Below are positions 15,471 through 63,744 of a stretch of DNA of 64,000 nucleotides, in pieces; positions within the stretch are counted from its first letter, which is position 1, and every line of letters starts with the position of its first letter. The DNA comes from Amoebidium appalachense (taxonomy: Eukaryota > Protista > Ichthyosporea), in NCBI GenBank assembly GCA_963693365.1, contig CAVNZM010000014.1, forward strand, positions 7,006,001-7,070,000. The letters are read 5' to 3'. The position numbers and the translations under genes are program-made. The notes beneath the pieces were generated by a model that had not been told where the DNA came from, made no database searches, and saw nothing but the letters and a program-made list of their open reading frames with translations.

Positions 15471-23627
<8,157 letters not shown>

Positions 23628-25964: not shown

Positions 25965-26354
25965 ATAGAAAGAGTTACAGCCTACGGTACGAAGTACACA
26001 TTCATGACGGACAACTCAACGCATTTTGCAACTTCAAATAACCTTGAAAGAGTATGCCTCGAATATTTGTTGTTGTTGTTTGGGGGGGGGGATCATGATG
26101 GTTGCCCATATGACAGCTCAGGACCTGCAGCTGGGCTCGGTGGGCTGCGTGACGACTGCAGTGCACAAGTTTCAAGTGTGTAAGAGGTGCCGTGGGGGCG
26201 ATGGGGAGGTGCACTGTTGCAAAGCAAATGCATTAAGCCGTCCTTTTTTTGCTTTTCCAGTTAGACTCTGTACAGGTGCACGTACATGTTGAAGTGCAGG
26301 TCTTTATATAGGTGTATTGTGTGTACGGTGTACGGTGTACGGTGTACGGTGTAC

Positions 26355-26880: not shown

Positions 26881-26917
<37 letters not shown>

Positions 26918-26981
26918 GCATTCACCTCGTCGACGAAATCAACCAACTCAATACTGCTTCACTTGAAATAAAAGGGGGGAA

Positions 26982-27518: not shown

Positions 27519-27667
27519 GGGGGGGGAGAGAGAGAGAGAGAGAGAGAAAGAGCAAGAGAGAGGGAGGGAGGAAGGGAGAGAGAGAGGATTAGGAAGGATG
27601 AAGGGAGAAAGAGGACGGCGGGAAGAGACGGCAGCCGGTGGGGAAGGGGAGGGGAGGGGGGGGGGAC

Positions 27668-27836
27668 TTAAATGCGGAACACGGTACGAAGTACACATAC
27701 ACGATGAGAAGCATGGTGCAGGACACATGCAAAGGCAAACATTCAAGTATGCAACATCAGCAATGCGCACAGTATGAGTCATAAGCACAGCCCATCCTCA
27801 GGGAGGGTCCAAGTCATCAATTGCGTCTGAGTTTCG
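27668..27836 (-). mobile_element. 5'-truncated copy of the poly(C)-associated structured repeat
   Basis: The reverse complement matches 39880-40035 (cgaaactcagacgcaattgatgacttggaccctccctgaggatgggc...ccgcattt). Flanked by G/C runs. Confidence 0.85.
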
Positions 27837-29778: not shown

Positions 29779-33772
<3,994 letters not shown>

Positions 33773-35275: not shown

Positions 35276-36513
35276 CACACACACACACACACACACACCG
35301 CCGCCACCACCACCACCACCCCACCTCACCCTGCACACATATACACACTTACGACTTTCCTACAGTTCTACAATGCCGAGGAGGCTGGAAAATATTCCAC
35401 AAAGTGAGTCTTCCCCCCCCCCCTCCCCCCCCCCCCCCCCCCCATCCCCCCCACACGTCCTCCACCGGACAGCAACCCCCTGAGTAGACACCCCTTTTGC
35501 TCCCCCCTCCCCCCCCCCAGAGCCCATAACAGCTGTTTTACTCGTTATTCGTTCTCTGTGTGCCTTTGTATTTTTTTTTTATTCTTTCGGTCACTCATAT
35601 ATGCTCCTCAACATCGTACATCCTAATTAACCCCCTCCCCCTCCCACTTTTCTTTCTCGCCTCCCCCCCCCCCCCCCCCCCCTCCCCCCCCTCCCCCCAA
35701 GGAGCCCATGTGAGGGCGTGCATTCTGAACTTTTTGCCTTGGTGGCACAAGTGTGCATGCCACATCCTGCATGTGATTGGCCCCCGTCTTTGCTCTGTGT
35801 ATTCCTGTTGAACTGAAATGTACCCATCCAATCAGATTGCATTCACGCACTGCCTGATCACTATTAGTAGTGTACCACATCCTTACCTCCCCCCCCCCCC
35901 CCCCCCTGCCCCCTCCTGCCGCGGATGGGCTCTTCTTATCATGCATACTCTTTGTGTGGTTTACACTCTGCATTATATTTTCCATATGAATGTGTACTTC
36001 GTAGTCTGTAACACATCCTGACCTCCCCCCCCCCCCCCTCCCCCCCCCCCCCCCCCCCCCCAGCTCCCGCATGATAGCCATCCAGACACAGATGACACAG
36101 CGTGCAGTCGAACTGCTCAATCTCCCCCAAGGACAGGTACCAATAGAACCTCCCCCCCCCCCCCCCCCCCCCCCCTCCCCGCTCCCCCCCTTTTCTCCCC
36201 GCCCCCCTTCCCCCTTTCCCCCTTCCCGCTTCCCCCAATTTCTACTGGCAGGTCCCCCCTCCTCCCCCCTGCGTTCCCCACCTCTGCCCTAACATACGGG
36301 TGTGTCATTCCTCTTACTACTTTGTCCACTTTGTTTGTTTGTGGATGGACACAATTAAAGAGAAATGGTGGAATGATTAAAGGTTTACTTATTGTACACC
36401 CCCACACACACACACATGCCATGCACGTGCATGGAGGCACGCATGTATGCATGCAGACAGACAGACACACAGGCACAAGCACAATCAACACCACGCCACT
36501 TGACCAAACAAAG

Positions 36514-36561
<48 letters not shown>

Positions 36562-36777
36562 TCATAATCGAGTGTCTACACCATTCCTTGGCCATACTTG
36601 AACGACCCTTATTCATATCCAACAACCCCTGCCCCCCGGGCTCTGCTTAGTATGCAAACTCTTTGTGTGGTTTCAAACTTAGCATGCTGCATCTTGTTGT
36701 CCGTTGTTTATGCGTACTTGGTACTTATGGTGCATTCAAACTCCCCCCCCCCCCCCCCCTCCCCCCTCTCTCCCCTC

Positions 36778-36918: not shown

Positions 36919-38292
36919 CCCTCCCCCCTCCACACATACTCACACACAGAATTATATATACACCAGCTCTTCACTATCTATCCCACTCAAATAGACATTT
37001 TAATTTTTTAACTTTAACGTTAAAACCATCAGGAGTGCCTGCTTCTGGACATAGGCTGTGGGTCGGGCATCAGCGGGGAGGAGCTGTCGGCAGATGGTCA
37101 CGTATGGATCGGCATGGACATTAGCCCCCACATGCTCGGTAATAGCCTTATATGGTCATGCGTGCAGGTGTCTGGTTGGTTGATTTGTTGGATGTGAAAT
37201 TAGCCCCCTCGCTCGGTAATAGCCTTATATGGTCATGCTTGCATGGGCTCGATTGGCTAATTGGTTGGATGTGACATCAGCCCCCACATGCTCGGTAATA
37301 GCCTGATATGCTCATGCGTGCATGGGTCTGATTGGTTGGTTGGTTGGATGTGATATTAGCCCCCACATGCTCGGTGAGCGCCTTATATGGTCATGTGTGC
37401 ATGTGTCTGATTGGTTGGATGTGATTTCCGACATCGTCTCGGTATAGCCTGCATGGTGTGAAAGGGTTGTGTGTGATTGCCTAGTTATTGATATCCACCT
37501 ACACAGGCATCATCTTGGCTGGCCCTTTTAAACCAACTACCGCTTCTCCCATTTTAGCGTCTGGGCGCTGACCAGCCGAGAGCCACATTTTTCAGATGTG
37601 CCTCACCAAACAAGAGATTTAATCAAATTGTGTCAAATACCGATGTCGACATATGATTCAGCCTTTCGCGCCCTTTTTAGGGCGACACGGCATCATGGAA
37701 TTTGTGCACAGAATGACGTCACCAATGTGGCTCGCCGCCCAGCAGTTAAAATGGAAGTAGCGGTGGTTGATTTAAATAACGAGGCAGATGGGTTGAGAGT
37801 TCCATTAAGTTTTCCACCAAATTTCACGAATTTGAGCGTTTATCTCACACGTGGTGGGCGTATGCAGGGGTGGCGCTAGAGAAGGAGGTGGATGGGGATC
37901 TGCTGTGGCACGACATGGGCCAGGGCATGGGGTTCAGGCCTGGAATGTTCGATGGTGTCATCAGGTGGGTCACGTGCACGTGCACACACGCATGCAGATG
38001 TGCACACACACAGACACATACACTGTGTCACTGCATCCACACCGGCATGCACATACACAAGCGTGCGTGCAAACAGGCTGTTACAGGCGTACACACTTAC
38101 AGGCATAGACACATCAACACACACCCATGCATACCCACAACAACCCCTTCCCCACCGTCTCCTCTCCCTTTCCCTCCCCCTCCCCCCCCCCCCCCCCCCC
38201 CCTTCCCTTCCTTCCACCACCACCACCACACCATGCACACCCACTGGTAGTCTGCCCCCGGATTTACAGATATCTAAGGCGGCGTCCTAGCA

Positions 38293-39079: not shown

Positions 39080-39112
<33 letters not shown>

Positions 39113-39264
39113 CATACAGTACACACACATGCATACAGTATTTGTAAACACTGTCCTGGTGTTGTTGTTTTTGTGTGTGTGTGTGCATACAGTACACACA
39201 CATGCATACAGTATTTGTAAACACTGTCCTGGTGTTGTTGGTCAAATGTCCCCAGTTTCCATCC

Positions 39265-39366: not shown

Positions 39367-41051
39367 GTCTCTTTCTTCCCCCCCCCCCCCCCCCCCCCCC
39401 CCCCTCTCTCTCTAGACCCAATTGATGACTTGGGTCCTCCCTGAGGATGGGCTCTGCTTATGACGCATACTGTGCACATGGCTGATGTTGCATACTTGAA
39501 TGTTTGCCTTTGCATGTGTCCTTCGTGTATGCGTACTTCGTACCGTGTTCCGCATTCAAACCCCCCCAGTCTTCTTTCAGAGGTGTCCTTTCAGGACAGA
39601 CCACTGTGTGGAGACCGCTTTACTTCCATGCAACCGGGCATGGTTGCTCTGTGTCGTGCATCTGTAAGCACATACGCATTTTTGCTCTGTGTCGTGCATC
39701 TGTAAGCACATACGCATTTTTCGCTGCACTGCATTAGCTTGCACACACATCTTCACCGTTTTGCTCACCTTGCTTGCATAAGCAACCCTGCTCGTCTTTG
39801 ATCAAGACGGGTTGACCCGCCCAAGTTCAGTTGATGCTGCTGTCTGAGTTGGAGCGTCGTATATACGCGGGCTAAGGGGTCGAAATTCAGACGCAATTGA
39901 TGACTTGGGTCCTCCCTGAGGATGGGCTCTGCTTATGACGCATACTGTGCACATGGCTGATGTTGCATACTTGAATGTTTGCCTTTGCATGTGTCCTTCG
40001 TGTATGCGTACTTCGTACCGTGTTCCGCATTCAAACCCCCCCCTCTCTCTCTCTCCCCCCCTCCCCCCGCCCCCCTTTATCTCCCTAAACCCCCCCATGG
40101 CTCCTATTCCTCTGATTTAAACCTCCCACCCCCCAGCCGTGTTTCAGTTCTACCCCGAGACACCGCAACAACTTGAGCTTCTGACCCAGGCTGCCATGAA
40201 GGCTGGCTTTACGGGCGGTGTGGTGGTGGACTTCCCTAACAGCACAAAGGCTAAAAAGTAGGCAGTGTCACGTGCACACACATGCTGACTGGACGTATAC
40301 ATTCACGTGCACACACATGCTGACTGGACGTATACATTCACGTGCACATGCAGTCAGATACACGTGTGTGCGCACAAACACTTGCATGTGCATGCATATG
40401 CGGCGTGCATGTGCGTCCACAAAAGCATTTCGGTTTGGTCTTAGCATGGAGTATTCTCTTTGCTTTTGTTATGTTATTTGTTCTGCCTAGATGTGTGGCT
40501 ACTGGTGCGCTGTTTTCTGCCTCGCCACAACTTAGTACTTTTAATCAAGAGCCCTCCCCCCCTTTCCATACGATTTCTTTTTGCACATATCATTACATCT
40601 CTCCTTCAATATCTAATTCGGACTGTGTACCGCAGGCTACCCCCCCCCCCCCCCCCCCCCCACCCACCCACCCACCCACCCTCCCACCCCAAAATGATGC
40701 ACACCCTTTGCGTGTTTTTCAAAATTGCATCGTGTTGTCCGCCGTGCATGTTTACATCGGCCATTACGCAATCTGTTCTGTACCACATGCTAATTCTCCC
40801 GCCCCCCCCTTTCAGGGTATTTCTGTGTCTGTTTGCCGGCACTACTGGACAGCTGCCTAAAGGATTGGAGGGTGAACCAGAGGATGAACACACGGCACAG
40901 TTCAACGCGTAGGTGGCCCTAAATGGGGGGGGGGGGGGGGGGGGGGATGTTCAATTAGGATTTTTTGGGATCTATTGGGTGACAAGACACAACCAAATAA
41001 GGGGCAAGCAGGAGAACTGGAAACAGTCGGCCAGGTGGGCCAAGGCACGGG

Positions 41052-41253: not shown

Positions 41254-41632
41254 TTAGAATGGGTTACAGAGTATGAAATACACATGCATGACGAATAATA
41301 CAATGCATATTTGCAGAGCACACATTGAAAGTACGAATCATTAAGCAGAGCCCTATCCTCAGGGGGAGAAGGTGGTGGTGATGAGGGAAGGAGGGGGGAG
41401 AGAGGGGCAGGGGGGCGGGGGGGAGAATTTGAATATAGGGCTTTTCGTGTTGCTAACACACGGGTTTATTGGCATGCAGGAGTGTGCGAGCCAAGAACCG
41501 AGGGAGGGAAAAGAAGGTGTCGGTGAAGAGCAAAGAGTGGGTGCTGAAGAAGAAGGAGAAGGCACGCAGGCAGGGCAAGGAGACACAGAACGACAGCAAG
41601 TACACGGCCAGGAAGAGAAAGCCGAGGTTCTA

Positions 41633-43040: not shown

Positions 43041-44051
43041 CTACATGGTTGCGCCCATCACCGTGGTAGCATAAAGCTCGAGCAGTCTGTGTGTGTCGAC
43101 CCCCACACAGATATCCAGCAGTCTGTGTGTGTCGACCCCCACACAGATATCCACCAGGGGACCTTGCCACATGTTCTTGGGCGACTCCTGCCTCCTGTCT
43201 GCTACCGTCATGCCGTGGGCTATACCCCCGACTGCTACACGCACGCGGTGACGCGTTACTTTAAACAGCGTTGGGTCGATAACATACGCCACGGCCGTCG
43301 GATCGTGTGTGTGGAGTATTCTCTCACCGTAGGCCTCCTCGTGGAAGTTAAAGTAGCCTACAACTGCCTTGGAAATCGCATCCGTGTACGTGTTTTTGGC
43401 CTGTGCAAGCCGGGCGATGAATGCCTCATTCATCACCACCTGCATGGTCACATCCAGTCCCACCATCACCACTGGCCACGGGGCACGGAACACAACATCG
43501 GCAGCGGCAGGGTCATTGTGGATGTTTGCCTCGGCAACCGGACTCACATTCCCGGGAGCAAGCATGGTGCCACCCATGAGCACCACCCTCTTCACGTGAT
43601 GCGCTATTTTGGGCTCTTGCTGGTACGCAAGTGCTATATTTGTCAGTGGGCCAAGGGGCACCAGGGTCACCTCACCAGGCCTAGCCATGATAGTGTCGAT
43701 GATAAACTGTGCGGCGCTCTTCTCTATGGGTGAGGTCTTAGGTTGGCCCTCTGCCAGGCCAGCATCACCCAGCCCATCATCCCCATGCACAAAGGTGGCG
43801 GGGGTTTCAAACTTGTCTTTGCCCAAGGGTGCACCGGCACCACGTGCCACGGGTATGTCGCTCCTTCCAGCACGTTCGAGAAGAAGCAGGGCATTGCGCG
43901 TGGTTTCGTCGATGTAGTGGTTGCCAAATACGGTAGTTAGGCCAAAAACCTCAACGGAGGGGGAGGCGAGGGCGAGGTAGATGGCCATCAGGTCATCGAT
44001 GCCTGGGTCCGTGTCGATGATGAGCACCTCGCGCGTGCTTTGGGGTTGCAT
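43041..44051 (-). CDS. Inosine-uridine-preferring-family nucleoside hydrolase, intronless, 336 aa
   Basis: Single ORF with the N-terminal DTDPGIDD metal-binding motif, TTVFGN, VHGDDGLG, LGPLTNIA, AEANIHNDPAAA, VGLDVT and HDP. Confidence 0.95.
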   Translation of the reverse strand: MQPQSTREVLIIDTDPGIDDLMAIYLALASPSVEVFGLTTVFGNHYIDETTRNALLLLERAGRSDIPVARGAGAPLGKDKFETPATFVHGDDGLGDAGLAEGQPKTSPIEKSAAQFIIDTIMARPGEVTLVPLGPLTNIALAYQQEPKIAHHVKRVVLMGGTMLAPGNVSPVAEANIHNDPAAADVVFRAPWPVVMVGLDVTMQVVMNEAFIARLAQAKNTYTDAISKAVVGYFNFHEEAYGERILHTHDPTAVAYVIDPTLFKVTRHRVRVAVGGIAHGMTVADRRQESPKNMWQGPLVDICVGVDTHRLLDICVGVDTHRLLELYATTVMGATM

Positions 44052-45324
44052 CTTGGGTTGTATAAGTATTTCGTGTGTTTACTTATAAGAGAAGAAAGAG
44101 GCAGGAAGATATATAACAGTGAAGTGGAAATAAGACGAAAGGCGCAAGTTAGCAAAGTTTGGGAAGGTTGAGTTTTGGGGCGTCAAAGTTTTGAACGGAA
44201 CTCTGACGGAAGGTGTTTATATAGTCTAGCAGGCAACCAATCATTTTTCGTTTTCATATGTCGACATTCCCCCTATACTCACTTTCATTGAACCGAATTC
44301 GCTTTAACTGTTTTATAAATGTAGGTAAATCGCTTTATAAAAAGCTTATATTCCAAATCAAGAGTAAATTTTTATCTTTTGGCTAAACGGCAGAAGTTAT
44401 TTGGCTAGAGCATACGAAAAATAGATAACTAGCCTTATAGATTTATTTTTCCGGATACAAAATTTCAACTTAGAACCCGCCACCCTTTTAATCTGTAGAT
44501 CTAGAAGCAAGAAGCCACATAAGCCAATCGTTTCTCAGAAAAGCCCCCGTTTTGCATTCCGGCATGCCCAAACAAGGCGATTTGCATAGTCGATTTCTAT
44601 TTTGATTAGCGTTATATCACGCATCTATCTGCCGAAGATAAACTTGCTGCGCAAATCATATCGCTTCTTGCATTTCGAATCAAGCCTAGGAACCCTTTCG
44701 GGTCGGGTTTTGGGGCTCATGGGCCAAAGTTCCTCTGAGGCTCTACGATGATTCACAGCTGAAAACTCAGAAAAATGTATCACTGTGTTTTCAAGTATCA
44801 TGTGGGATGAACGGGTATTTCATGTGGTAACCAGATGCCTTAAAGTGGCGAGTGAACATATGCATAATGCTGATCTAATGCTTTTTCTGGCCCTATAACA
44901 CTTATGTTTGTGCCCTTGGTTATGGAATAATCATAATCAATCTGGTCCGCAGACATTTGGTGCTTGGTTCCGATTGCAAGCACACAATCGAGTCTCTTAT
45001 TCCCAGGTGAAACGAAGAATCTACTGCAACATTTGAATCACAGTTGTAAGAACCAGCGACAAACAGCATCCAAAACCTACAGCCGCACGGACACACACAT
45101 ACATCCTTTGATACACACCCTCCCATCACACGTTGAGGGTAGGAAACACAGAGGATCTCCTCACATAGCAACCCAAAGTGCCTGTCTAAACCCCATGTAG
45201 CCACAGCGCCGGGGTATGGGTCCCTTCGGGCCACCCCAGGCCTTTTAAATGCACCTCAAATCAAATCAAATGAATCCAGTCACTCATGATTAGAACTTAA
45301 AAGGTGCTGGAAATTTGAACGAAA

Positions 45325-58098
<12,774 letters not shown>

Positions 58099-59047: not shown

Positions 59048-59462
59048 ATATAGTTAGGAACTCAGGAGACGGGGCTTCTAGGAAGCTCCCCCGTCGATAC
59101 CTAAGTCGATACTTCCCTGGCTAACATACTACACCAGCTGAAAAGAATTAAGTCCCGAAGGCCGCAGAATTCGCAATCAGAGGGGAAAATATGAGATTTG
59201 ACCCACGCCGCAGGGTAGTAACACGCTTACTAGGGCGGGGGCATAGCTTTCCGTTCGAAGACGATAAAGTTCCGCCCTAGTAAGCGTGTTACTACCCTGC
59301 GGCGTGGGTCAAATCTCATATTTTCCCCTCTGATTGCGAATTCTGCGGCCTTCGGGACTTAATTCTTTTCAGCTGGTGTAGTATGTTAGCCAGGGAAGTA
59401 TCGACTTAGGTATCGACGGGGGAGCTTCCTAGAAGCCCCGTCTCCTGAGTTCCTAACTATAT
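59048..59462. mobile_element. Foldback/MITE-like perfect inverted repeat (191-bp arms, 33-nt spacer)
   Basis: 59048-59238 is the reverse complement of 59272-59462 with no mismatch seen. The ends can be read as TA|TAGTTAGG...CCTAACTA|TA (possible TA TSD). Confidence 0.85.
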
Positions 59463-59516
59463 TTTTCTTGCTTCTGCTTACTGCTGCAACTTTAACCCCC
59501 GGCCTTTCCCACTGCC

Positions 59517-59763
59517 CTTGCCTGCATAAGCAACCCTGCTCGTGTCTGATCAAGACGGGTGACCTACTCATGTTCAAGTGAAACAGTATCTGAGTTGGGT
59601 TTCGTTAAGGAGGGGAATAGGTCGAAACTCGGGTACTGTGGATGACGTGGCCCCCCCTGAGGATGGGCTCTGCTTATTATGCATACTCTTTATGTATGGC
59701 TTGCATTCTGCATCGTGTTATCCGTTTGTTCTTGTGTACTTCGTACTTTTTGACGCATTCAAA
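59517..59763 (+). mobile_element. Divergent long copy (second subfamily) of the structured repeat
   Basis: Shares cttgc.tgcataagcaaccctgctcgt, gatcaagacgggt, tctgagttgg, ggtcgaaa, ccctgaggatgggctctgcttat, gtacttcgtac and gcattcaaa+C run with 39769-40035. The stems differ in sequence. Confidence 0.85.
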
Positions 59764-61089
59764 CCCCCCCCCCCCCCCCTTCCATTCCTTCCCTCGCCCC
59801 TTCCCCCCCCCCCCCCCCCCACCCCCACCCTCCCACGACGCGTAAGCTTCCCCAAGGGCAACCAACATACATATGCATGCACAACCACGTGGTGGGGTTT
59901 ACGGGTATATGTGGCTGTGACGGCAGACACACAGCATAGGATAGCCGGCACGTGCATCCATGCCCACGTGCAATGCCATGCATGACGTATGCATGGCCTG
60001 GGCCTGTCACCAACTTGGACATGCTCGTGCTACAAGATGCAGAATCCAAAATGGCCTCACCCACCGTATAGTCTCCAGGGCTTTGTACCCGCTGGCTTAC
60101 GTAAGTGGCTGGGCCCTACTACGCTGCGGGATGTCGCCTGCGGCAACATAAAAAAAAAAAGAAGAAGAAGAAGAAGAAGAAGAAGAAGGAGAGGCCGCGC
60201 AGGGAGACAGCACTCAGAGTAACTACCCACCACAGTCCTAGTATGGCAGGGATACCTATATAGCTCCTTTTTTTGCTGTTGTTTTATTAAAAAGAAAAAA
60301 TATTGCGTGCCAAAACTTCCAGCTCAAATTTCCATATTTGGCTAATCAGTGCAATCGTGCGCGGATATATTAGTTCATACGTTTTTATTTTTTTGAGAAT
60401 GCAATATCCCACTTTTTTGGTTGTTTTTATACAGGCAGATACAGTGGCTGTCATGTTCGAATTCACCCACCGGGGTACGTACGTAGCTGAACACCGTGCA
60501 CACGTACGTGGTATTACAAAATATTATAACCCAGGCCTGAGCATGCCCGGCCAGAACTCGATTGGAAGCTTACTGGTGGGCTTACATGTGTGCGTGCCCG
60601 TGCCTGTGCATGTGTGTTTGTGTGTGTGTGTGCGCGTGTGTGTGTGCATGTGTGGGCCCGGCGTGCTTGTGTGTTTGTGTACGTACGTGTGCGCACGTGC
60701 ACACTTGCAGGGGGATCGTTGTCTTAAACTCTATGACAAATCCCGCTAGCGCACACATTGGTCACAGTCACATGTGGCCTTTCTATTGGTCAAATAAACC
60801 GGGTTAGGTACATGACTCTTGTTCCCGGACCATACACATCATGAGTCTCGGTTGTGTGCACGTGTTCAACACTTCGCATGTGTGCTTGTCGGAGAATACT
60901 CACTCCGTGTTAACAACATCGAGGGGTTTATTAATGAAGAGATGGTGCAAGTGCAATCATACACATCTTACAAGCCGGCATCATAACAATACAAAATACA
61001 TTATTCACGGGAATTTGGCCCTCCACAATCACCATTTTAAAATTCGCAGACATCTATCCATCAGCTATCTAAGATTTACCTCTGCATAT

Positions 61090-62045: not shown

Positions 62046-63038
62046 GTGGTTTTTATGAACACGGTTAGTATTGGACAGAATTTACCAATTGCAAAGAGAC
62101 ATTACAGTATCACGGGGAAGGACGAATGAGGGGGAGCAGACGTTTCTAACACGCAACAGGGCAAAAACGAAAGGGTAGCATTGCTGGGCGGTGTTAAGTC
62201 CAGAGAGGTATGGTGGTGCGGGTGTGGTGTGCTTGGTGGTGCTGTGGTTGGTTCGGATTGGGGTTGGAAAGTGGGCGTCGGGGGGAAGGCAAGGGCGGGA
62301 GAGGGCAGCGGGGAGGGCGTGAGAGAGAGGTTGGGGGAGGAGGAGCCGGGGGGAGGGGGCTCGAGGGGGGGGGGGGGGGGGGGGGGGGTTTGGCTGTGAG
62401 AGTTGGAGTTGGATTGATTGATATTTGGTCGGTAATGGGCGGAAACGGTTTGGTAGCAAAGACTAAACCAGACGTTTTCATGCCCCGTCGTCCACCTCGT
62501 CGTTCTCTGAGAAACTAGCGTTGAAAATTTGACAGTATGAGACAAAAGCCCCAAATCCGACAATTTCAGTCCGCCAGCAGGCTTGATTTCGGCCGATCTG
62601 ATCGATCGGATCACCCCCATTTTTAAGCCAAAATTTATCCCCCGAGTCACAAACAGGTGCTAGGGTTAGAGGGTGTGTGCTCTCACCTTGTGCTCCGTGG
62701 TGCCGTTGGCCAGTGTGATGTACAGGTGCAGGGCATATCGATTAGCCTTATCGGGAAGTGGGAATGCATTCTTATTGGCTCGTGTCCAGGCCCCCACCTG
62801 GATAGTGCCTTGGATCCCCCCCGGATAATTCACGGCCTGCCACGCACCTATATAGGACCCCCCCCTCCAAAAGATCAGAAATGGATGTGGAAGGGATCGG
62901 GGGAAATGGAGGCGTGGGGGGGAGGGGGGGGTTGTTGGGTGCTTTTTTTTTTGCATGTGGAGTGATGAAGAAGAAAAGGCAATGTGGGGCTCATGACGAG
63001 ATGGAAGGTGAGTGGTTGATAGGACGAGGTGGTGGTAG

Positions 63039-63116
<78 letters not shown>

Positions 63117-63146
63117 AGGTGAATGGTTGATAGGACGATGTGGTGG

Positions 63147-63215
<69 letters not shown>

Positions 63216-63744
63216 ACGCGTGTGTGTGTTTTTGTGTGCGTTCCACACGCGCGTGTGCCTGTATGTTGTGTGTGTCTTTCTTCCATTCTTTCATTCTTTT
63301 CGTTTCTTCTTCTTTCTTTCTTTTTTTTTTTTTCTTCGTGGGGAGGGGGGGGGGGGGGGGGGGTTGATTATTTGGTGAGTAGAGGGGTGGGAAAAAGTGT
63401 GCAGCAATAAAACGTACTTGTGGCACGTACTACTACTAGCTCAATAACGGCGCTAGCTTTGCTCTTACGTGTTTTAGCGCAGTACATTTAGCTATTATAG
63501 GGGTCTAACTGGCTAATTCGTAGGTGGGCGGGCGGGCGGGTGGGCAGGGGGGCGGGGGGCCGGGGGGGGGGGGGGGAGGGGGGGGGGAGGGGGGTTCCTT
63601 ATGGGGCTGCATACCTCCCCTGTCCTTGTCTTTCTTTGTGGCCACCACGATGCACCTCATGCCGTCATAGCAGCCTGTGCCCAGTTTGTAGCCCACATTG
63701 CCACGTGCATGCCAGCTGCTCCCTCCCTCCTCGAATGAACCGTC
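61090..63744 (-). CDS. Single-pass membrane protein: CBM4/9-like domain, S/T/P stalk, TM helix, short tail (5' part not identified)
   Basis: Exons 63744-63615, 62847-62687 and 61722-61090 join in phase: [11 protein letters not shown]...GAWQAVNY...IQVGAWTRA...[10 protein letters not shown]...VYFDSVSL, then a T/S/P-rich stalk, then [27 protein letters not shown]. The domain call is by pattern only. Confidence 0.75.

Follow-up and report, generated by a model that had tools for sequence, protein, structure and literature searches.

A predicted self-cleaving RNA of hammerhead type, with CUGANGA split from stem II, in a repeat of Amoebidium appalachense

The stretch of DNA analyzed here (the window) comprises 64,000 nucleotides (nt) of the ichthyosporean Amoebidium appalachense (assembly GCA_963693365.1, contig CAVNZM010000014.1, positions 7,006,001 to 7,070,000 of the forward strand; coordinates below count from its first letter). 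It harbors a family of short repeats, two full-length copies of which—one of subfamily A, ending at 40035, and one of subfamily B, ending at 59765—contain every strand of a hammerhead ribozyme core. In the explanation that we favor, and consider probable, this motif is an SGC-ordered hammerhead whose CUGANGA strand is split from stem II; it would sit near the 3′ end of a likely non-autonomous, Penelope-like (Naiad-related) element, and is predicted to cut itself after U39850.

Eckert et al. (2023; PMC10085705) divide the hammerhead into three blocks, S, G, and C, of which the order SGC is non-circular. The canonical types I, II, and III are circular permutations of S-C-G and lack core pseudoknots. 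The present motif shares their core residues and three core helices, but its order is S-G-C, and Rfam recovers no match, either across the whole window at the gathering score or across 39560–40040 at E ≤ 5.

Core strands and pairing in the two copies

The strands of the motif in copy A, and its extent in copy B, are as follows.

39777..39788, + strand: 5′ strand of helix P0 (outer helix of 8 bp and inner helix of 3 bp, separated by 1 unpaired nt; pair probabilities 0.79–1.0 in A)
39790..39812, + strand: hairpin H1 (its first pair is G-U; in A all 9 pairs are present, with probabilities 0.83–0.99; palindromic tetramer in the loop)
39814..39818, + strand: 5′ strand of stem II, detached from CUGAGGA (G10.1 is 39814; 5 Watson-Crick pairs with 39877–39881)
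39820..39827, + strand: 5′ strand of the helix that connects stems I and II, equivalent to helix "I" of type SGC (8 pairs with 39902–39909, −10.6 kcal/mol)
39841..39850, + strand: 5′ strand of stem III and GUU (predicted cut 39850/39851, by analogy with hammerheads)
39851..39854, + strand: 5′ strand of stem I (4 pairs with 39912–39915 in A, 3 in B; an A-U pair becomes G-C in B)
39877..39893, + strand: block G, comprising the 3′ strand of stem II, GAAA (39882–39885), and the 3′ strand of stem III (strand check)
39902..39915, + strand: 3′ strand of the joining helix, 2-nt link, 3′ strand of stem I (strand check)
39916..39937, + strand: CUGAGGA, extra U, 3′ strand of P0 (21 of 22 positions identical between A and B)
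59525..59678, + strand: the motif in subfamily B (predicted cut 59596/59597)

The first-pass annotation of this sequence had placed hammerhead core strands in both copies, and a direct check of the strand bears out each of them: the GUU triplet at 39848–39850 in A and 59594–59596 in B, the C-GAAA strand at 39881–39885 and 59623–59627, and CUGAGGA at 39916–39922 and 59657–59663, followed in both copies by a U. Each copy holds the full core (C3-U4-G5-A6-N7-G8-A9, G12-A13-A14-A15.1, and U16.1-H17), together with the G10.1–C11.1 pair when the upstream strand serves as the 5′ side of stem II. Beyond U16.1–A15.1, stem III comprises 8 pairs in copy A and 12 in copy B; stem I has 4 in A and 3 in B, where position 4 is U·C; and stem II, formed with the upstream strand, has 5 Watson-Crick pairs in A and 6 in B. 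The closing helix (P0), hairpin (H1), and extra helix that had also been described are present in both copies, with the last of these, the joining helix 39820–39827/39902–39909, complete in A (8/8 pairs) and nearly so in B (7/8). The H1 loop palindrome, at 39798–39804 and 59546–59552, is a possible kissing-loop dimer signal.

Letter shares in contigs from four sequencing runs, which are unphased and whose summed depth is not taken as copy number, help to separate private from family states. U39886 is private to copy A, being C in more than 99% of depth in all four runs, so the family has the canonical G16.2–C15.2 pair. The changes at 59544 and 59609 are likewise private to copy B (other letter in more than 99% of depth), while at 59651, its broken joining-helix position, G makes up 65%, 69%, and 91% of the depth of the three DNA-type runs and 43% in the remaining run, X14.

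The motif is the best-shared part of A and B, with 117 of 161 columns identical, versus 49 of 98 in the 3′ tail; the 5′ strand of P0 together with H1 is identical at 33 of 36 positions. Core residues are unchanged throughout, despite the 44 motif columns that differ. Stems I, II, and III directly abut these residues, and each carries one compensatory change between the copies (in stem II, C-G in A and U-A in B), in keeping with the earlier claim that the core-flanking helices covary. Among 45 homologous pairs compared in the raw copies, four changes are double-compensatory (one in each of stems I, II, and III, one in the joining helix), five are single compatible changes, one of them in the joining helix, and four pairs are broken. 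With three family-majority letters substituted, the tally becomes four double, four single compatible, and two broken, both of the latter at helix ends. In simulation, four or more double changes arise with a probability of 0.0018 when the raw copies are taken with their observed share of transitions, and of 0.020 if only transitions are allowed.

Could the core words nevertheless be chance matches in a structured 3′ untranslated region (UTR)? Two homologous copies were the initial basis of the model, and the flanks are conserved as much as the core. However, a descriptor requiring the order S-G-C, at least 3 pairs in stem I, 4 in stem III, 5 in the upstream stem II, and 6 in the joining helix—drawn up, it should be said, after the sequence was seen—matches only A and B in the window, both on the + strand, and finds nothing in 191.5 Mb of random sequence, Markov-generated at similar composition (two looser levels of the descriptor give 14 and 7 matches). 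Being homologous, A and B are to be counted as a single origin, and the covariation and descriptor tests are biased toward a model built on these same two copies. Two further points, both discussed below, argue against coincidence, which we regard as extremely unlikely: the likeness to a validated ribozyme class, and the recurrence of all seven helices, identically ordered, in four Naiad ends of unrelated sequence.

Several other candidates were set aside. A minus-strand reading yields no descriptor matches and weaker folds. The core elements of HDV-like, twister, pistol, and hairpin ribozymes are lacking, and a decayed type III hammerhead, whose degenerate CUGANGA would fall between the site and GAAA, was rejected since neither A nor B has G at the G5 position. 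A pattern scan of metagenome contigs gave 15 loci, none of which passes the full descriptor and one of which (L013) passes without the joining helix; all were dropped as chance. The corresponding pattern scan of viral contigs gave no loci.

Placement of stem II and comparison with type SGC

The first-pass annotation had stem II completed by a distant upstream strand. CUGAGGA-U indeed runs into P0, and G10.1 follows H1 approximately 100 nt upstream. The same strands could, in principle, belong to an ordinary, intact type-SGC hammerhead, in which stem II would be formed by the strand directly after CUGAGGA, following a 2-nt insertion, and the upstream strands (P0 and 39814–39827) would constitute an off-switch. 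Such pairing has 6 pairs in A and 4 in B, and Eckert et al. allow 1–2 inserted nt between CUGANGA and stem II (PMC10085705). The upstream strand, however, gives the stronger helices in both copies: −7.1 (A) and −6.7 (B) kcal/mol for stem II, against −5.1 and −1.5 for the alternative, and −10.6 and −4.8 kcal/mol for the joining helix, against +1.0 and +2.2. Further, the A-to-B change in the 3′ strand of stem II is compensated in the upstream strand but breaks the alternative pairing, and the strand after CUGAGGA is held in P0, with a probability of at least 0.79 in A and at least 0.92 over the core-proximal pairs in B. An intact type-SGC motif is, on these grounds, very unlikely, and the upstream assignment of stem II stands on energy, covariation, and its recurrence (by eye) in four unrelated Naiad ends. 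In B-type contigs, the stem II partners 59565 and 59619 also shift to C and G at similar shares (3.1/3.3% in run X1, 4.1/3.8% in X6, 3.5/2.8% in X3, and 11.6/6.5% in X14), although this co-shift is unphased and may stem from A-type pieces.

Because energy and covariation favor the upstream strand, we regard the motif as SGC-like in its working, yet not as a strict member of type SGC: an intact block C, in which no more than 1–2 extra nt separate CUGANGA from stem II, is absent. Type SGC itself has been validated by cleavage, by a core mutant, and by compensatory mutants of all four helices, with rates of 0.007–0.19 per minute; the low end of reported rates for validated non-circular hammerheads is approximately 0.004 per minute (PMC10085705). 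The repeat resembles this type (HRIMA-1 and the SGC variants) in its S-G-C order, full core, and extra U after CUGANGA, and in having a stem II of approximately 5 bp and, after it, a helix connecting stems I and II. Given 39814–39818 as the 5′ strand of stem II, the repeat's 39820–39827/39902–39909 is the SGC fourth helix, pairing the segment before the 3′ strand of stem I with that after the 5′ strand of stem II. In Supplementary Figure S8 of that paper, examined by eye, three metatranscriptomic SGC-variant rows have A's letters in stem II, a 7-bp joining helix, and CUGAGGA-U; two SGC-variant rows have GUU sites.

The differences are equally evident. Stem II of type SGC lies 0–1 nt after CUGANGA in all 30 rows shown, whereas here it lies some 100 nt upstream, with P0 and H1 bridging the gap. 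Stem I has 4 bp in A and 3 bp in B, against 4–7 in the published descriptor; the link between blocks S and G is 18–22 nt long, against 0–8 in the descriptor and typically 3 in HRIMA-1; and the present motif sits in a genomic repeat of a eukaryote, whereas Eckert et al. report type SGC from no genome of a known organism (PMC10085705). The architecture had initially been put forward as new. This may hold for the separation of CUGANGA from stem II, but not for the strand order, which was already published and validated as type SGC. In the literature that we could cover, which excludes most subscription journals, we found no split-block hammerhead and no SGC hammerhead in retroelements.

The carrier repeat and its likely relation to Naiad elements

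The principal family members in the window are listed below.

39570..40035, + strand: full subfamily A unit, approximately 470 nt, with a C-run at its end (in runs X1, X6, and X14, head-to-tail joints link 40035 to 39570 through a short C-run)
39414..39565, + strand: 5′-truncated upstream copy of the unit's 3′ part, a partial tandem that is pseudo-LTR-like (151 of 152 positions identical to 39889–40040)
59239..59765, + strand: subfamily B insertion (upstream body unrelated to A's; covered in all four runs)
59048..59238, − strand: inverted 191-nt 5′ segment belonging to the B insertion (complementary to 59272–59462 at 100% of positions)
47544..47727, + strand: 5′-truncated A-type copy (begins 17 nt past the predicted cut; without the site block)
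31439..31603, − strand: 5′-truncated A-type copy (begins 26 nt past the predicted cut)
27660..27836, − strand: 5′-truncated A-type copy (begins 30 nt past the predicted cut)
26915..26967, − strand: short diverged B-like fragment (spans the predicted cut site)

A profile search recovers 12 family pieces in the 64 kb, and blast one further fragment; the pieces share a common 3′ end and C-run termini, and are shortened on the 5′ side. The subfamily A unit contains no long open reading frame, and 10,612 contigs of run X1, from which this DNA may itself derive, align to it. No alignment longer than 14 nt joins the upstream bodies of A and B. Young A-type truncated pieces (4 of 4) start 17–38 nt past the predicted cut, which hints that cut RNA may serve as the template; stalling at stem III would explain the pattern equally. 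Set against a cut template are six older pieces that start further down, and one fragment and both full copies that span the site.

Other observations concern the same family. Segment 59048–59462 forms a perfect 191-nt inverted repeat with a 33-nt spacer, and would yield a long RNA hairpin if transcribed. Older, diverged 3′ pieces of the same or sister families occur at 35914–36030, 36630–36750, 41255–41366 (−), 25980–26060 (−), 1787–1829 (−), and 55046–55095; the piece at 41255–41366 retains CUGAGGA, with one extra nt ahead of the P0 strand. Both 39414–40040 and 47544–47727 sit in C-runs on the sense strands of introns, the former in what we take to be a BUD23-like gene and the latter in a kinase gene, a pattern suggesting that insertions take their orientation from intronic C-tracts.

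From its sequence traits, the carrier is likely a non-autonomous, Penelope-like (Naiad-related) element of retrozyme type. Naiad and Chlamys elements characteristically target (C)n or (TA)n and form partial tandems and inverted 5′ copies (Craig et al., 2021; PMC8557442), and the repeat displays a partial tandem, 5′ truncation, an inverted 5′ segment, and a microsatellite target. It differs from the Naiads in that these are autonomous, 3.3–4.8 kb long, found in animals, and biased to (TA)n, whereas the repeat is approximately 470 nt long, non-coding, and directed to C-runs, as Chlamys is. It is also comparable to the non-LTR retrozymes of animals, which are short, non-coding tandem units with one hammerhead each and are derived from Penelope-like elements (bioRxiv 10.64898/2026.07.22.740005). 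Those hammerheads, however, are of type I, which is circularly permuted, so that the ribozyme type differs.

According to Craig et al., canonical hammerheads are missing from Naiad elements and from most Chlamys elements, but core words persist in some of them. We parsed by eye, uncomputed, the published consensus 3′ ends of nine of the 54 Naiads in their table (one of them incomplete, and one in its last 290 nt only); the remainder of the supplement may alter the tally. Four of the nine—Naiad-3_Chem, Naiad_Amil, the record preceding Naiad_Plae (Naiad-2_Movir by table order), and Naiad_Plae—show the split motif with all helices paired, in sequence unrelated to the repeat. The order in each is P0, H1, the 5′ strand of stem II, joining helix, stem III, site, and stem I, and then the 3′ strand of stem II, GAAA, stem III, joining helix, stem I, CUGANGA, and P0; the cleavage sites, in the sequence of names above, would be AUA, GUA, AUC, and GUA. 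Their links match those of the repeat: 0–1 nt from H1 to G10.1, 0–1 nt from stem II to the joining helix, 1–2 nt from the joining helix to stem I, and 0–1 nt from A9 to P0. In Naiad_Amil, the first four H1 pairs equal those of the repeat, and the Movir element has a U·U facing the junction, as the repeat does. Stem I has 4–5 bp and the stem I-to-II link 4–8 nt in these Naiads, against 3–4 bp and 18–22 nt here.

Three records that have no split hammerhead, Naiad-1_Chem, Naiad-2_Chem, and the last Naiad record, share by eye a common, different 3′ UTR motif that is possibly another structured RNA. Physarum-Pp1 and -Pp2 carry canonical type I hammerheads. Chlamys was dropped as a source of the motif: inspection by eye of the 3′ ends of four C. 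reinhardtii elements, Chlamys-1 to -4, showed it in none.

The first-pass annotation had proposed a multi-pseudoknot or dimer-requiring topology. The wiring is as described, but a dimer is in principle unnecessary, given that published SGC constructs cleave as single-motif transcripts (PMC10085705). One could still suppose that activity requires a dimer, or two tandem units, with RNAs paired via the palindromic H1 loop and the core drawn from both. Head-to-tail units do occur, the short stem I would gain from added contacts, and the H1 loop is palindromic, by eye, both in the repeat family and in two of the four motif-bearing Naiads, with different letters in each. It is not palindromic in Naiad_Amil or Naiad_Plae, however, and a single unit already holds all the strands; we consider a dimer requirement improbable.

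Proposed mechanism and genomic setting

In the split, SGC-ordered hammerhead that we favor, P0, H1, the joining helix, and stem III would form a nested scaffold, which is the predicted ground state in A: its pairs have probabilities of 0.76–1.0 (one terminal pair, 0.16), the 5′ strand of stem II is unpaired in the minimum free energy (MFE) structure and thus available, and A folds better than shuffled sequences (z = −2.26). Stems I and II would then close as two pseudoknots around the core. P0 and H1 may stack end to end as a crossbar, in which case the nick between them would place A9-U, leading into P0, beside G10.1, leading out of H1. A four-way junction would thereby replace the direct A9–G10.1 bond, and the RNA ends, opening in P0, would represent a further permutation of SGC. 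Between A9 and G10.1, a viroid hammerhead accepts one added residue (PMC1636495), and in the passages covered, Perreault et al. (2011; PMC3088659) describe core insertions of 1–2 nt at other steps only. The chemistry would be as in any hammerhead. Hammerhead cleavage employs G12 as the base and the 2′-OH of G8 as the acid, and leaves a 2′,3′-cyclic phosphate and a 5′-OH.

By analogy with hammerheads, the repeat RNA likely cuts itself. The putative role of cutting would be to resolve tandem or read-through transcripts into monomers of approximately 470 nt with ligatable ends, possibly circularized; animal retrozymes have been suggested to yield monomers with such ends (bioRxiv 10.64898/2026.07.22.740005). 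Copying of the monomers into C-runs would then fall to a Penelope-type reverse transcriptase with its gene elsewhere.

A number of observations weigh against this explanation. Copy B folds no better than its shuffles (z = −0.34), and its H1 and joining-helix pairs have probabilities of 0.05 or less. Holding open the core and the strands of stems I and II costs 11–12 kcal/mol relative to the free MFE (−51.9 vs. −63.0 kcal/mol in A; −40.2 vs. −52.4 in B), a cost that the two pseudoknots must repay. Stem I has just 3–4 bp, the site is GUU, and the stem I-to-II link is 18–22 nt long. The comparison is limited to two full-length copies, between which P0 and H1, within this genome, show no covariation; A carries its private G·U at 16.2/15.2, and B its private breaks at 59544 and 59609 along with the minority letter at 59651. 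Copy A lies on the sense strand of an intron, as judged from exon frames, where fast cutting might be harmful. The split motif was not seen by eye in five of the nine Naiad ends, nor in the four Chlamys ends. Finally, no reverse transcriptase family appears among 13 frames scanned with Pfam, two frames in the B body have no Pfam match, and no partner open reading frame is seen in the window; the element class is consequently inferred, with the link to Naiad resting on RNA architecture and insertion traits.

Some of these points would suit a fold that is real, and inherited from a Naiad-type ribozyme, but that cuts very slowly or not at all, being kept instead as a recognition signal for reverse transcriptase or as a packaging signal. 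Such an RNA would be consistent with a stem I this short, a GUU site, a linker this long, and the competing hairpins, and with the position of A within a sense intron. The most conserved blocks, moreover, are P0, H1, and CUGAGGA-U, with no compensatory change there, and of nine retrozyme dimers tested, eight remained uncleaved (bioRxiv 10.64898/2026.07.22.740005). Yet the core residues are unchanged between subfamilies that have otherwise diverged, and stems I and II, which are relevant mainly to a catalytic core, each show a compensatory change. We consider a slow or inactive RNA unlikely.

If the RNA does cut, the assumption that CUGANGA and stem II are inseparable, on which Eckert et al. 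base their count of six possible permutations (PMC10085705), fails, and a non-circular hammerhead is demonstrated in the chromosomes of a eukaryote. The motif also makes testable the point raised by Craig et al. concerning core words retained in elements without canonical hammerheads (PMC8557442), and engineered ribozyme switches would gain a new docking place in the four-way junction at A9/G10.1. More tentatively, and as a joint proposal whose truth we think doubtful though possible, the crossbar-joined hammerhead may be an ancient, overlooked Naiad-type ribozyme shared by animals and a non-animal eukaryote, with permutations beyond six, circular 470-nt retrozyme RNAs, and, in some lineages, an H1-loop palindrome that couples cutting to dimerization.

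The window in which these repeats reside is rich in introns and microsatellites, and Pfam identifies pieces of Rpb8, forkhead, PGM1, nucleoside hydrolase, and kinase genes. For one PGM exon, none of the 120 matches listed (of 289) exceeds 57% identity; fungal proteins are at the top, with animal proteins close behind. Amid this intron-rich region lies an intronless nucleoside hydrolase frame of 345 amino acids (43041–44078, − strand; PF01156, E = 5e-92), which has a short duplicated peptide near its C-terminus and possibly reflects a retrocopy or horizontal transfer. Local tandem duplications of 70–110 nt units are found at 37117–37421, 21604–21783, 39089–39240, and 63006–63229.
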